A stretch of DNA of 64,000 nucleotides from an uncultured Pseudohongiella sp. (lineage in GTDB: Bacteria > Pseudomonadota > Gammaproteobacteria > Pseudomonadales > Pseudohongiellaceae): positions 674,198 to 738,197 of the forward strand of contig OZ245834.1 of NCBI GenBank assembly GCA_965228725.1, in the 5' to 3' direction. Positions 1 through 8,247 of the stretch are shown piece by piece (positions within the stretch are counted from its first letter, which is position 1; each line of letters starts with the position of its first letter). The translations under genes and the position numbers were made by a program. The notes under the pieces are model-generated. The model worked only from the letters and a program-made list of their open reading frames with translations. It was not told where the DNA came from and searched no databases.

Positions 1-1
1 A

Positions 2-145
2 ACATACGATGAAGAAACTGAAACACTCATAGTTCCGCAACTGTATTTGGACGGCAAGACTTACCGGACAATTCTAAATGCTCCATTCAACATCCAGGAG
101 CTGGAGCACTTAGGCGAGTTGGGTATTTATCACTACGATGAGTAA
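2..145 (+). CDS. 3' end of a cassette ORF (hypothetical protein, truncated by window edge)
   Basis: Open frame from position 2 (...TYDEETETLIVPQLYLDGKTYRTILNAPFNIQELEHLGELGIYHYDE*), stop TAA 143-145, immediately followed by an attC-like site. Confidence 0.4.
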   Translation, partial: TYDEETETLIVPQLYLDGKTYRTILNAPFNIQELEHLGELGIYHYDE

Positions 146-148
146 CAT

Positions 149-211
149 ACATAACAATCAGCTCTATCATGGACTCGGCTTACGCCGATCCCGCTGACAA
201 GAGCGTTACTA
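149..211 (+). repeat. attC-like recombination site (R'' ACATAAC ... R' GTTACTA)
   Basis: acataac-aatcagc-tctatcatggactcgg / ccgatcccgctga-caagagc-gttacta. Arms pair imperfectly with bulges. Resembles the class 1 attC (aadA7) layout as I recall it: TCTAAC-AATTC...CAAGC-GTTAGA. Confidence 0.6.
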
Positions 212-218
212 GCCTAGC

Positions 219-620
219 ATGAGAAATGTGCTTGTTTTAGTAATGTTGATACTTCTCGCCCAAGCAGGAGAAGCGACTACATACTCTGCTCGAGCACTTG
301 ATCCCGAGGAGGCTAGAAGATGGGGTATAAGCATAGTCGCTTTTCGGACTAGCGGACTCGAATCGATCATCACAATCGGTCTGAATGCAGCCAACTTCTC
401 AAGATGTCGAGTTTCGTATGTGACTATTCTGATCAGAGATAAAGACGGATATCTGGTACAAGCGATTCGCCCTTCTAAGCTAGGCCGGGAGTACTACGTA
501 AATCTCGATGAAGAAATATTAGGCAACTCTGAAATTGATTTAAAATGTGAACCCAAAAGAGCTACGCAGCCTGGTGAGCAATACACTATCAAATTGAGTA
601 GATTCGTCAGGGCTACGTAA
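219..620 (+). CDS. small secreted hypothetical protein (cassette ORF)
   Basis: 133-aa ORF with an N-terminal signal-like segment MRNVLVLVMLILLAQAGEA. Starts 13 nt after the GTT box. Confidence 0.6.
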   Translation: MRNVLVLVMLILLAQAGEATTYSARALDPEEARRWGISIVAFRTSGLESIITIGLNAANFSRCRVSYVTILIRDKDGYLVQAIRPSKLGREYYVNLDEEILGNSEIDLKCEPKRATQPGEQYTIKLSRFVRAT

Positions 621-674
621 CCAATAAATCAATTTGGATGCGCCATGGCGCGCCAATTATCACGGGCGGTATGT
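615..674 (+). repeat. attC-like site, degenerate right box (GGTATGT)
   Basis: acgTAAc overlaps the stop codon. Internal palindrome aatttgg-atgcgcc-atgg-cgcgccaatt, then cacgggc-ggtatgt. Confidence 0.45.
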
Positions 675-680
675 CCCTAA

Positions 681-1133
681 ATGATCAAGAGACGAATTCT
701 CACAGACACAATTACTTGCATGCTCCTAGCTGGAATTGCGTTCATTGGGTTTGCTTTCGCTCTTGGTCAAGCTCCAAGAGACTCAGCAGCGTATAAATTT
801 ACCTATATAGACACTGACAAGATAGATCCAGGAACGCACAAAATTGTGGTGTTTCAAGGAACCCCGATAGTATTTTCCAAACTAAGCAATGGTAGCGTTG
901 CAAGTTTTATCGCGTTAAGCAATTACAGCGAATGCCATTTGCAGTACGCTCCACCAGGTGCATTAGATGTGAATTGGAATGGCGGCTGGATTGACCCTTG
1001 TAGTACTGCAATCTGGGATAACGAAGGAAAATTTATATCTGGAAAAAATTCAGGAGTTAGCAGTGCTCTGGACAACCTACCTTCTCCAAATATGCTTTCT
1101 TGGCAGGGGAACACTGCGGTATTAAATCCATGA
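681..1133 (+). CDS. membrane-anchored protein with degenerate Rieske-like C-terminal domain (hypothetical)
   Basis: 150-aa ORF with an N-terminal TM helix. The segment ECHLQY...GGWIDPCSTAIWDNEGKFISG...LPSP aligns by eye to the Rieske pattern CTHLGC...GGWxCPCHGSxYDxxGRxxxGPAPxNL, but cluster ligands are missing. Confidence 0.5.
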   Translation: MIKRRILTDTITCMLLAGIAFIGFAFALGQAPRDSAAYKFTYIDTDKIDPGTHKIVVFQGTPIVFSKLSNGSVASFIALSNYSECHLQYAPPGALDVNWNGGWIDPCSTAIWDNEGKFISGKNSGVSSALDNLPSPNMLSWQGNTAVLNP

Positions 1134-1143
1134 ATACGGCACA

Positions 1144-1204
1144 CCGTAATTAATTCAATCGCCAGTCGCGACTGACTCAAGGACGAACAGCGACACAGTT
1201 TGTC
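1144..1204 (+). repeat. attC-like site (R'' CCGTAAT ... R' GTTTGTC)
   Basis: Inverted arms gtcgc/gcgac inside. Right end acagcgac-aca-gtttgtc. Next ORF begins shortly after. Confidence 0.45.
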
Positions 1205-1264
1205 CATTAACATGGCCACCTGATGCTTCGATACTTATTGCAACGTAGCCCAAAGGAGCTCCAA

Positions 1265-6398: not shown

Positions 6399-6478
6399 AA
6401 TGACGTCAAACCATTGAAAATATGACGACAGATAGCGAACAGTTCCATGCACTGGCGTAAGTACCCAGCCTATGCGAC

Positions 6479-6561
6479 ACAAAATACCGGGATCAGCGCA
6501 GAACCGATCCCGCTTCTGGTTTTAGTTTTGACAGCTACATGCTTGTCGCCAGAGGTTAGGG
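6479..6561 (+). repeat. possible attC-like site (R' GTTAGGG)
   Basis: acaaaat-accgggatcagcgcagaaccgatccc (6-bp arms gggatc/gatccc) ... gccagag-gttaggg. The right box is followed by the palindrome partner cgctaac. Confidence 0.35.
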
Positions 6562-6631
6562 CGCTAACAGCGCAGCACCCTGCTACATTATCGAGCCCGC
6601 CATGGCTTTTACATTCTAAGCTTTCGCCGAG

Positions 6632-7207
6632 GTGAATTTGATCAGAATTGCTTTTGTCTATTACACCAATACAGACGTTACAGGTGAACTTATAAGGTCT
6701 GCTTTCGAGGAAATCGACACGTCAGGTGTTGAAGTATTCTCACATCGCATTTCAGGAAGTGAGATCATCGAAGGAAGGTTTGTAAATCAGGAGCTCATGA
6801 CCCTGCTCCATAGTTGCTCAGGAATAGTATTCGGTTCTCCGACCTACATGGGTAATGTCGCGGCGCAGTTCAAAGCATTCGCTGATGCGACCAGTGACTT
6901 CTGGTCAGAGCAGAAATGGTCCGGCAAAGTTGCAGCGGGTATTACTTCGGGCACTGGGCTCAATGGGGATCAGACTTGCTCACTTCAATACTTTTCTACA
7001 CTTGCCAGTCAGCATGGAATGCTATGGGTTGGACTAGACACGCCATACAGCAACGCAGAAGGCAATGTGAATCGGCTCGGATGCCAGCTTGGCGTAACTG
7101 CATGTAGTACAGACGGTGACATTCATCCAGGCGATAGTGAAAGCGCAAAGTATCTTGCTCGAAGGGTATTGGAAATTTGCCAAAAACTAGCACGCAACAG
7201 CAATTGA
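6632..7207 (+). CDS. flavodoxin-fold NAD(P)H:quinone oxidoreductase (WrbA-like)
   Basis: IAFVYYT..TG N-terminus, GIVFGSPTYMGNVAAQFKAFADAT, and a KVAAGITS...Q segment typical of the WrbA/flavodoxin-like fold. GTG start. Confidence 0.7.
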   Translation: MNLIRIAFVYYTNTDVTGELIRSAFEEIDTSGVEVFSHRISGSEIIEGRFVNQELMTLLHSCSGIVFGSPTYMGNVAAQFKAFADATSDFWSEQKWSGKVAAGITSGTGLNGDQTCSLQYFSTLASQHGMLWVGLDTPYSNAEGNVNRLGCQLGVTACSTDGDIHPGDSESAKYLARRVLEICQKLARNSN

Positions 7208-7258
7208 TAACTCAGCTGATAGATCCACGGACAGATCAACTCACTACAGGGCGCTACG
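7205..7258 (+). repeat. weak attC-like site
   Basis: tgataac-tcagctg ... acagggc-gctacgc. Short, with a GCT in place of GTT. Confidence 0.25.
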
Positions 7259-7303
7259 CCGACAGATCAATAAAAACAATAACGTAACAGCGAAACCACA
7301 ATA

Positions 7304-7672
7304 ATGAATAAATTTGCTTCAACCGTAGTCTATGTACTCGGCGATGCCAAAGACGTTCTGGATTTTTATGTCGATGCGTTTAGCTTGAAGATCAAACACT
7401 TTGACGAGCAGTTCAACTTCGGTGAGTTGGACACGGGAGACACGACAATCGCTGTGGCCAATCATTCAGCCGGCGAGTTTATGATAGGCAAGAACTACTT
7501 CGCACAATCTGACGGACTCCCGAAGAACATCGAGTTTGCGTTCTATGCAGAAGATGTAAGCCAGTCATATGACGTGGCGATTGAGAACGGCTGCGAAAGC
7601 CTGTTAGAACCCAGGACCATGTCCTGGGGGCAAACTGTTGCTTATGTAAAAGCATCGAGGGCACAATCGTAG
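7304..7672 (+). CDS. VOC/glyoxalase-family protein, C-terminus apparently frameshifted
   Basis: VVYVLGDAKDVLDFYVDAFSL...HSAGEF...FAFYAEDV is a VOC-like pattern. After the A-run at 7648-7651 the expected C-terminus (SIEGTIVGLISTP*) continues in another frame to 7692. Confidence 0.65.
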   Translation: MNKFASTVVYVLGDAKDVLDFYVDAFSLKIKHFDEQFNFGELDTGDTTIAVANHSAGEFMIGKNYFAQSDGLPKNIEFAFYAEDVSQSYDVAIENGCESLLEPRTMSWGQTVAYVKASRAQS

Positions 7673-7724
7673 GCCTGATATCCACCCCATAACACGGCCG
7701 CTCTTAGGCCCTTCTGGTGAGACG

Positions 7725-8156
7725 ATGAAATTCTATACGGCTCTTTTTACAACGCTGATTTCATTAACTGGCACTCATGCACACCATGACATTTCCGACG
7801 ATTTTGCTACCTCTCTCAGTCAAATTGGAGGCGTGATAACCGGCTTGGAGTGGAGCGATCCCCACGTGCTGGTTCGACTATCTATACATCCAGATTCAGC
7901 TAGTTCCCAGCATTATCTTATCGAGATGGGGCCTCCCGAGGAACTGGAAGAGGAAGGGATTACTATCGATACATTTGAGCTTATGAGCCGTGTCAGCATT
8001 GTTGCCTACTCATCCAAATCCAAGGTTTCTGAGCATGGATACTACCTGTATGGACTCTACCTTGTTGAATCCCAATCGCATAAGCTGCTTGTGAACAAGG
8101 CTTTATACGAGATACTCCCGCAAGTCGATTTTCCAAGCTTTAAAGTCGACCCATAA
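7725..8156 (+). CDS. secreted hypothetical protein
   Basis: 143-aa ORF, signal peptide MKFYTALFTTLISLTGTHA. Confidence 0.55.
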   Translation: MKFYTALFTTLISLTGTHAHHDISDDFATSLSQIGGVITGLEWSDPHVLVRLSIHPDSASSQHYLIEMGPPEELEEEGITIDTFELMSRVSIVAYSSKSKVSEHGYYLYGLYLVESQSHKLLVNKALYEILPQVDFPSFKVDP

Positions 8157-8171
8157 TATCCATGTAGAGAT

Positions 8172-8247
8172 CGAGTCGAATCAGCTCTGGCATTGCGCAT
8201 AGCATCCGCACACCCGGACATCAAGACGCATGATTGAGGCGTCATAG
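8172..8247 (+). repeat. attC-like site, degenerate (R' GTCATAG)
   Basis: cgagtcg-aatcagctc ... gattgaggc-gtcatag. Confidence 0.35.

Follow-up and report, generated by a model that had tools for sequence, protein, structure and literature searches.

A probable terminal part of an eroded integron gene-cassette array in an uncultured Pseudohongiella

Cassette units at the left end of the window

The window analysed here is a stretch of 64,000 nucleotides from an uncultured Pseudohongiella sp. (assembly GCA_965228725.1, contig OZ245834.1, positions 674,198 to 738,197 of the forward strand). At its left end, short open reading frames (ORFs) on the + strand alternate with elements that we identify as attC sites, the recombination sites of integron gene cassettes. 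We put at about 0.9 the probability that positions 1 to ~5.5 kb, and probably the region as far as 8.25 kb, are the terminal part of an eroded integron gene-cassette array. The GC content is 43–49% over the first 14 kb, compared to 55–58% over the remaining 50 kb. All sizeable ORFs of 1–8156 lie on the + strand and encode products of 86–276 residues, only five of which have Pfam matches (alpha/beta hydrolase, YjbR, FMN reductase, a glyoxalase-like fold and DUF6152). Judged by eye, ten of the 14 products have a signal peptide-like or transmembrane start, in keeping with the mostly secreted or membrane cargo described in a first-pass annotation of this DNA.

Ten consecutive units, each a short + strand ORF followed by an attC element, fill positions 1–5529. 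The elements in these 5.5 kb are 60–84 nt long, start with ..(T)AAC-AATCAG(C/T)T and finish with ..RGRGC-GTT... The next start codon follows an element after 2–31 nt, and the TAAC box contains the stop codon of two ORFs (618–620 and 4833–4835), both features having been recognized in the first-pass annotation. That annotation had extended the ORF-then-element pattern to 8.25 kb. The pattern holds for 1–5.5 kb, where motif counts, the covariance model R1 and homology to a relative's integron (L049) support it, and is unproven from 5.5 to 8.25 kb, neither R1 nor nhmmer finding a match in 5900–8400. The features of the first part are listed below; bit scores are those of R1, which is described in the next section, and z refers to the fold of the bottom strand.

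1..145, + strand: 3' part of a cassette ORF, truncated by the window edge; 67% identity over 45 residues to an ORF of L044 (202–68, - strand)
149..211, + strand: best-preserved attC, with R'' ACATAAC, R' GTTACTA and a folding stem; 43.6 bits (E 1.5e-9); -11.2 kcal/mol, z -3.3; L-box pairs non-canonical in the model alignment; 82–90% identical to attCs of L008, L017, L019, L020, L024, L029, L041, L042 and L049
219..620, + strand: cassette ORF, 133 residues, signal peptide-like N-terminus, stop inside R''; no Pfam match
615..674, + strand: attC with nearly all pairs retained and R' changed to GGTATGT; 34.5 bits; z -0.75
681..1133, + strand: cassette ORF, 150 residues; 36% identity to an L005 ORF with attC on both sides
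1143..1217, + strand: attC remnant with L boxes and stem recognizable, both R boxes gone (TAAT; no GTT) and an 18-nt inserted hairpin; 21.4 bits, the match (1148–1217) spanning model positions 8–58 only; z -2.5
1223..1933, + strand: cassette ORF, signal peptide-like, probable start 1265; no Pfam match
1955..2022, + strand: attC remnant, R'' TAAC changed to TATC, broken stem pairs; only 7.6 bits; z 0.08; 81–83% identity to three L049 attCs
2045..2875, + strand: cassette ORF, alpha/beta hydrolase with signal peptide (Pfam Abhydrolase_1, E 3.4e-15)
2922..2986, + strand: attC remnant, R' GTT changed to AAT; 8.5 bits, compared to 52.7 for the orthologous L049 attC (3759–3694, 71% identity)
2987..3321, + strand: cassette interior without an ORF, orthologous to an ORF-less cassette of the L049 integron (66.6% identity)
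3322..3389, + strand: attC remnant absent from the first-pass annotation, right half destroyed; nhmmer E 0.0046; 59% identity to the orthologous L049 attC (3355–3289, 60 bits)
3390..3650, + strand: cassette ORF, 86 residues, two hydrophobic segments
3659..3723, + strand: attC remnant, AAC and GTT retained, stems broken; 20.7 bits; z +0.46
3738..4214, + strand: cassette ORF, 158 residues, signal peptide-like
4232..4314, + strand: long-variant attC, right arm GCCCATTAACCAGAGCGTT near the family consensus; 35.1 bits; z -0.65; right half nhmmer E 3e-4
4317..4835, + strand: cassette ORF, 172 residues, secreted, stop inside R''; homologues between intact attCs in L002 (78%) and L001 (62%)
4830..4893, + strand: attC remnant, ends retained (TAAC..GTTT), interior unpaired; 12.3 bits (match 4830–4902); z 0.15
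4925..5440, + strand: cassette ORF, 171 residues, multi-pass membrane protein
5446..5529, + strand: attC remnant, R'' and R' both gone (AAT; ACT); 16.6 bits; z 0.58

Eight copies of the 8-mer AATCAG[CT]T are found on the + strand within the first 9 kb, where 0.35 would be expected and 2000 shuffles gave four at most. Seven of the eight copies lie 2–56 nt downstream of an ORF stop codon, and the remaining 55 kb have only two copies on this strand. Further exact matches to AACAATCAG at 46582 and 52223 have no model support and were taken as chance. Promoter-like sites are depleted in the array (7 found, 15.8 expected), whose units have the order and polarity of integron cassettes.

The attC family in the integrons of relatives

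R1 was built from 16 intact attCs of L001 and L002 only, with no window site included. These are two unrelated metagenomic arrays, reached via homologues of the product of 4317–4835, composed of small same-strand genes, each with a very clear attC after it. Their consensus reads ACnTAAC-AATCAGTTCAAT-nAAGGAC-(variable palindrome)-GCCCATTAACAAGGGC-GTTATGT. The alignment of the 16 sites consists of a 7-bp R box, an L box (TCAAT/ATTA) with one bulged C, a GG-A-C..GCC stem with a bulged A and a covarying central stem; the two bulged bases correspond to a G and a T, respectively, of the bottom strand. An R box, a bulged L box and a covarying stem are the canonical layout of attC sites. In this alignment 84.6% of the cells are paired, compared to 30–43% when the partners are slid, and 42 cells carry double changes, compared to 18.5 in shuffles.

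A covariance-model search had been proposed in the first-pass annotation as a check on the attC assignment. Run over the 64-kb window with filters off, R1 recovers seven sites, all on the + strand and all within 149–5529, with scores of 12–44 bits. Six have E<0.1 over the whole window, the seventh (12.3 bits) has E 1.6, and the sole other match has E=9.8. The aadA1 attC of the class 1 integron In2 (plasmid R100) is matched by R1 at full length, with 35.1 bits and all pairs canonical, and is the only significant match in the 8-kb R100 locus. The query for this site was a 58-nt sequence, located at ≥99% identity in 1963 plasmids; in R100, it lies between aadA1 and qacEdelta1, near intI1. Three window sites thus fit this model about as well as a textbook attC. 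The two bulges of the family (C of TCAAT and A of GGAC, top strand) are conserved and aligned with the equivalent aadA1 bulges. The GGAC box, with its putative extrahelical base, persists in seven window sites, but the pairing around the box is lost in most. The ends given in the first-pass annotation for the aadA7 attC (TCTAAC-AATTC...CAAGC-GTTAGA) agree with aadA1 of R100, the site covered by this comparison in place of aadA7. A search of the whole window with Rfam at gathering thresholds matched no family, which is neutral as to attC. With ungapped position-weight matrices for the two halves of attC, indels caused most sites to be missed, and nhmmer was used instead. High per-column retention of the AATCA motif was dropped as a sign of selection, as the weak sites had been picked by that motif.

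When 185,579 species genomes were scanned for exact matches to the conserved positions of the family, 45 blocks were obtained, nearly all from metagenome-assembled genomes (MAGs) of Pseudohongiella or of unclassified Pseudomonadales/Gammaproteobacteria. R1 has 205 matches in these blocks, mostly of 50–84 bits, with the AAC and GTT triplets nearly invariant. A tblastn search with IntI1 detected full-length homologues (41–48% identity) in six blocks (L004, L023, L030, L036, L044 and L045), and partial homologues in another five, mostly truncated where a block ends (including L012 and L043). The intI gene adjoins the array on the opposite strand in L004, L012, L023, L030, L036, L043, L044 and L045, and also in L049. 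Three of these integrases score 369–374 bits on NCBIfam TIGR02249, "integron integrase" (cut-off 265). Thus, the attC identity proposed in the first-pass annotation is upheld by the box and stem architecture in relatives, by the location of the arrays beside TIGR02249 integrases and by the recovery of the aadA1 attC. The complete chromosomes of relatives contain about three separate attC clusters each, with intI detected beside only one (for example OZ244193.1, with blocks at 920, 1216–1232 and 1784–1800 kb, and OZ245938.1). Arrays resembling CALINs (clusters of attC sites lacking an integron integrase) therefore also exist in this lineage. L049 was reached via P0098, the closest IntI relative for the source genome (87% identity to P0075, see below), and is a complete integron of at least 20 cassettes. 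Its 66-nt attCs form a very homogeneous subfamily and have the AATCAGTTC variant in common with the window.

The ORFs point to the same arrays. Homologues of the products of 1–145, 681–1133, 4317–4835 and 7725–8156 are found inside attC arrays of relatives, several with attCs on both sides; the L044 homologue of 1–145 is located just past the first detected attC of that integron (546–611), on the array side of intI. The protein encoded by 219–620 had no match in scans of genome contigs and metagenome contigs.

Several further features were observed in the relatives' loci. A second attC size class of ~116 nt is present in L013, L012, L017 and L043 (e.g. L013 284–399), with R1 scores of 28–56 bits; the extra length is a central insertion. 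In L001 (8623–9858), a transposase gene of the IS110 family (DEDD_Tnp_IS110/Transposase_20) directly follows an attC left end (AACTAACAAGCG...), and the next recognizable attC lies at 9793–9858. Among the IS110/IS1111 elements, one subgroup uses attC sites as insertion targets. The arrays of L001 (3532–6033) and L038 (3565–5566) begin ~0.5–1 kb from a - strand gene for a pyrroloquinoline quinone (PQQ)-dependent dehydrogenase, with no intI between, and look like a CALIN at a conserved chromosomal position with intact attCs (71–81 bits). In L049 (10001–14989), the integron integrase gene lies ~2.4 kb from ilvD (dihydroxy-acid dehydratase). Xanthomonas integrons are reported to be located downstream of ilvD (bioRxiv 10.1101/2025.06.18.660453); the common neighbour may be a coincidence or may reflect shared ancestry of the insertion locus.

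Erosion, extent and origin of the array

The seven R1 matches of the window (12–44 bits) score well below the 50–84 bits typical of relatives. Both AAC and GTT are kept in only four of the 12 window sites (149–211, 3659–3723, 4232–4314 and 4830–4893), a count that includes two candidates further right, 7205–7258 and 8170–8247. One or both core triplets are mutated in the other eight: GGT at 668, TAAT at 1145, TATC at 1961, AAT at 2983, GAC at 3326, AAT/ACT in 5446–5529, GCT at 7253 and TCG/GTC in 8170–8247. Among the altered right boxes, GGT at 668, AAT at 2983 and GTC at 8241 had been read correctly at first pass, and the GCT had been placed one base off, at 7252. For 150 sites from relatives, bottom-strand folding has a median of -10.5 kcal/mol and z -3.2, and 84% of these sites fall below z -2. 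Comparable folding in the window, which the first-pass annotation had suggested examining, is seen for 149–211 and, marginally, for 1143–1217; the other ten sites (z -1.0 to +1.5) show none.

The nature of the damage is clear from L049. Sites 1955–2022, 2922–2986 and 3322–3389 align base for base with the L049 subfamily, and scattered substitutions break their pairs and core triplets. One cassette, 2987–3389 in the window and 3693–3356 in L049, is orthologous, and its interior is 66.6% identical, compared to 71% for the upstream and 59% for the downstream attC; the flanking L049 attCs, with 52.7 and 60 bits, equal the subfamily consensus. As the attCs have diverged about as much as the non-coding interior, the window attCs have drifted at about the neutral rate. 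These low scores, the missing folds and this drift agree with the partial decay noted at first pass. Judged by its dN/dS of 0.12 against the L002 homologue (dS ~1.06), the cassette gene 4317–4835 is under purifying selection. In this testable case the gene is, by these sequence comparisons, kept while the attC sites decay. Most of the attCs are predicted to be unable to fold or to present the cleavage triplet, which would leave the cassettes mostly fixed and non-excisable. At most two or three sites might still be possible substrates, namely 149–211 and perhaps 4232–4314 and 615–674.

The ORF-less cassette itself (window 2987–3321; L049 3693–3356, - strand) contains several nearly invariant blocks despite its overall identity of 66.6%: GTGATTCTTCCTG; GTGGAAAGC.CGC.ACA.TAGGTTACGC; and TTTGCATCCCGGCA.TTATGGGGTATTGTTCTT. 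A hairpin and T run resembling a terminator (3234–3262) make up the third of these blocks. This cassette may encode a small RNA. No Rfam family matched 2900–3450 at E<=1, and a metagenome scan with the conserved block found no further copies.

To the right of 5529, the ORFs continue on the same strand, and the features are as follows.

5549..6398, + strand: two ORFs, a 131-residue membrane protein and a YjbR-family protein (Pfam YjbR, E 5e-18), with no element between them and no attC after either
6632..7207, + strand: ORF, NADPH-dependent FMN reductase family (Pfam FMN_red), putatively of cassette origin
7205..7258, + strand: claimed attC remnant with a short motif resemblance only; no R1 or nhmmer match; z +1.5
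7304..7672, + strand: ORF, glyoxalase/bleomycin-resistance fold (Pfam Glyoxalase, E 3e-5), no element after it
7725..8156, + strand: ORF, DUF6152, signal peptide; cassette homologues in relatives
8170..8247, + strand: probable last attC remnant, heavily eroded (AATCAGCT ... GAGGC-GTCATAG); no model match
8244..8283, no strand: 13-bp tandem repeat ATAGTTGGGGTGT, three copies, abutting the array end

No recognizable element is present at the junctions 5944/5961, 6398–6632 and 7672–7725. A perfect 10-bp hairpin (CGGGATC.G..C.GATCCCG, 6488–6512), with GCGAC and GGTTTTAGT at its sides, is located 90 nt past the YjbR ORF. In this region (6470–6536), folding is stronger for the bottom strand than for the top strand (-9.7 compared to -6.5 kcal/mol). 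This hairpin has no model match and may be the last trace of an attC. The DUF6152 product has 29% identity over 131 residues to an L012 ORF situated between two attCs, and 41% over 69 residues to an L043 ORF that closely follows an attC at the block end, the next attC being in the adjoining L017. The glyoxalase, YjbR and FMN-reductase classes are common as cassette cargo. Taken together, the strand, gene size and GC content, the DUF6152 homologues within arrays, and AATCAGCT with a consensus-like right end suggest that 5.5–8.25 kb is probably also cassette array.

At the distal boundary, the ATAGTTGGGGTGT repeat begins inside the last attC-like right end (GGC-GTCATAGTT); its unit is found in none of the 51 loci compared. 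The low-GC island goes on past the array (8457–14400) with a + strand ORF of 229 residues and a - strand block of three genes, which encode a ricin-type lectin-like protein, a protein of 610 residues with a weak MACPF/perforin match (E 0.002) and a protein of 391 residues; a GNAT-like ORF follows at ~13.8–14.4 kb. These three genes possibly form a module for a pore-forming toxin. The search detected no attC in 8457–14400. A 7/14-bp tandem repeat (TCTGTTCTCTATTT, 3.7 copies, 14466–14519) is located just upstream of a gene for a TonB-dependent receptor, where the GC content rises to the genome level. The right-flank genes of the window show no synteny with the relatives' loci examined.

The integron integrase IntI recombines the folded bottom strand of attC either with attI, resulting in insertion, or with a second attC, resulting in excision, and only cassettes near the promoter Pc are expressed. 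In this scheme, each unit of 0.4–1 kb would once have been a circular cassette consisting of one promoterless ORF and one attC, and an integron integrase would have inserted it through its folded attC bottom strand at attI. The attC family would be the one that serves sedentary chromosomal integrons in Pseudohongiella and its relatives among the Pseudomonadales. The recombination sites are no longer maintained, and the cassettes would now be effectively fixed chromosomal genes, out of reach of excision and shuffling. A tblastn search of the 64-kb window, with IntI1 and Pseudohongiella IntI as queries, found no IntI-like ORF or pseudogene. The source chromosome nevertheless very probably encodes an intact integron integrase, P0075: it is a 318-residue IntI with a full-length alignment to TIGR02249 (360 bits) and retains the catalytic R, K, H, R, H and Y, as judged against an IntI1 sequence. 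We lean slightly, at about even odds, toward the array being the old, attI-distal end of this chromosome's main integron, with the P0075 gene left of position 1. The R1 score declines from left to right (rho -0.57, p 0.053, 12 points), and scores are likewise lower in the distal array blocks of two relatives (L034 compared to L023; L011 compared to L043/L017). Both trends fit, weakly, insertion at an attI to the left with the age of cassettes rising rightwards. We tentatively raise, as a rather doubtful extension, that the array is an age-ordered record of attC erosion in a genome with an intact integrase, with entry at the left, neutral drift at the distal end and useful ORFs kept. If so, the distal end of a sedentary integron would be a conveyor that turns mobile cassettes into fixed genes; were this general, sedentary-integron activity would be confined to a proximal zone, and the decay gradient could be used to date cassette capture.

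Other origins have to be weighed against this history. The array could be a CALIN, an attC cluster detached by rearrangement, by insertion at a secondary site or by local loss of intI, with P0075 belonging to another, intact integron; we regard this as a plausible reading that falls somewhat short of an even chance. It would agree with the absence of intI in the 56 kb to the right of the array (a CALIN has at least two attCs and no intI on either side), with the multiple arrays per chromosome in relatives and the L038 and L001 arrays that start beside the PQQ dehydrogenase gene, and with a best window site that still scores below the family norm. Low similarity between attCs is a reported property of CALINs, which have been proposed as a step toward cassette stabilization (Cury et al. 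2016, PMC4889954). The decay gradient, however, indicates insertion from the left, and the CALIN-like arrays of L038 and L029 have intact attCs (71–81 bits), so that the lack of intI alone does not predict such erosion. It is unlikely, though not to be dismissed lightly, that the array consists of 1–5.5 kb only, followed by ordinary island genes that never had attCs. The 16-nt spacing of the ORFs at 5944/5961, the lack of any R1 or nhmmer match in 5900–8400 and the extension of the low-GC island to ~14 kb, where the opposite strand carries genes that are not cassettes, speak for this reading, whereas the DUF6152 homologues within arrays (with attCs on both sides in L012 and after one in L043), AATCAGCT 23 nt past the last stop with a right end like ..GGGC-GTTATG, and a strand, gene size and GC content as in the confirmed part point to cassettes.

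The function of an attC depends more on its folded structure than on its sequence, and the ~116-nt variants of relatives reach only ~30 bits with R1; the window sites could form a divergent but functional subfamily in a fully mobile array. We consider this very improbable, given that ten of 12 sites show no excess bottom-strand folding, that AAC or GTT is missing in eight of 12, and that the sites at 1955, 2922 and 3322 align with the homogeneous L049 subfamily except for scattered, pair-breaking substitutions. Repetitive extragenic palindromes, the related mosaic elements (REP/BIME) or terminators are likewise short, intergenic and partly palindromic, and a REP-like element had been named at first pass as an alternative. 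Their probability is negligible: the sites are confined to one strand and to the left end of the window, the other 56 kb having none; the five terminator-like sites in 1–9500 all lie apart from the elements; and in relatives the family lies beside integron integrases, at about three clustered loci per complete chromosome.

Several points weigh against the interpretation of the left end of the window as the terminal part of an eroded cassette array. The window begins inside a cassette ORF, and no intI, attI or Pc is visible in it; the assignment of P0075 and the window to one contig comes solely from matching database-record details with the window protein P0001. The E-values of R1 are rough, owing to a short calibration. 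Loss of attC function is read from sequence and folding, while integrases tolerate much variation in attC sequence, and the left-to-right gradient is of borderline significance at n=12. In 5900–8400, R1 finds no match even at E<=10 and nhmmer finds none, and a cassette origin at 5.9–8.4 kb is argued from orientation, low GC, one short motif and one homologue family.

Comparison with known integrons

The array of the window is of a type found in Pseudohongiella-like marine bacteria and resembles sedentary integrons, such as the superintegron of Vibrio cholerae with its repeats (VCR) and, among the loci studied here, L004, L023, L045 and L049. These consist of short ORFs in one orientation that have no known function and mostly no promoter. 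A lineage-specific attC of ~60–80 nt comes after each ORF, often with the stop codon inside R'', and the GC content is below that of the host. The attC consensus of the Pseudohongiellaceae integrons is the same as that of the window. Unlike in these integrons, the window attCs score 12–44 bits instead of mostly 50–84, and most of them have lost the fold and at least one core triplet; unlike in complete sedentary integrons, no intI or attI is visible in the window. The aadA1 attC (the 59-base element of In2) has the same organization as the window family and, in part, the same sequence (TAAC-AAT..GTTCAA..stem..TTAAC..AAGCGTTA). It is an intact, active site of a mobile integron, recognized by IntI1, whereas the window sites belong to another, lineage-specific family and are mostly eroded.

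With CALINs, the array of the window shares at least two attCs, the absence of intI on its visible side and the low similarity between attCs. CALINs have been proposed as an intermediate between the capture and the stabilization of cassettes (PMC4889954), a role that fits one gene under selection among eroded sites. A CALIN, however, requires the absence of intI on both sides, and the source chromosome of the window probably encodes an intact IntI. In Xanthomonas, inactivation of the integron reportedly leaves stable, lineage-fixed arrays (Gillings et al., as summarized in bioRxiv 10.1101/2025.06.18.660453). These arrays resemble that of the window, where integron activity would likewise have been lost and a stable cassette array would remain, and differ in the site of the damage described, which consists of frameshifts and deletions of intI in Xanthomonas and affects the attC sites in the window, where the integrase of the genome looks intact.

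Sedentary integrons, CALINs and the stabilization idea have already been described, and Pseudohongiella MAG integrases are already so named by NCBI. The present analysis gives hypothetical secreted and membrane proteins a context as captured integron cassettes, and defines an attC family specific to the Pseudohongiellaceae lineage, with a validated covariance model and ~200 sites near bona fide integrases. The main addition is the comparison of orthologues, with neutral drift of attCs near a selected gene in a genome whose integrase looks intact. It provides a natural example of the passage from mobile cassette to fixed gene, with attCs intact in one genome and neutrally eroded in the other, and a neighbouring ORF with a dN/dS of 0.12. 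The stabilization idea put forward for CALINs is supported, and no new mechanism is revealed; the array of the window is a clear, if ordinary, case of a process already known.

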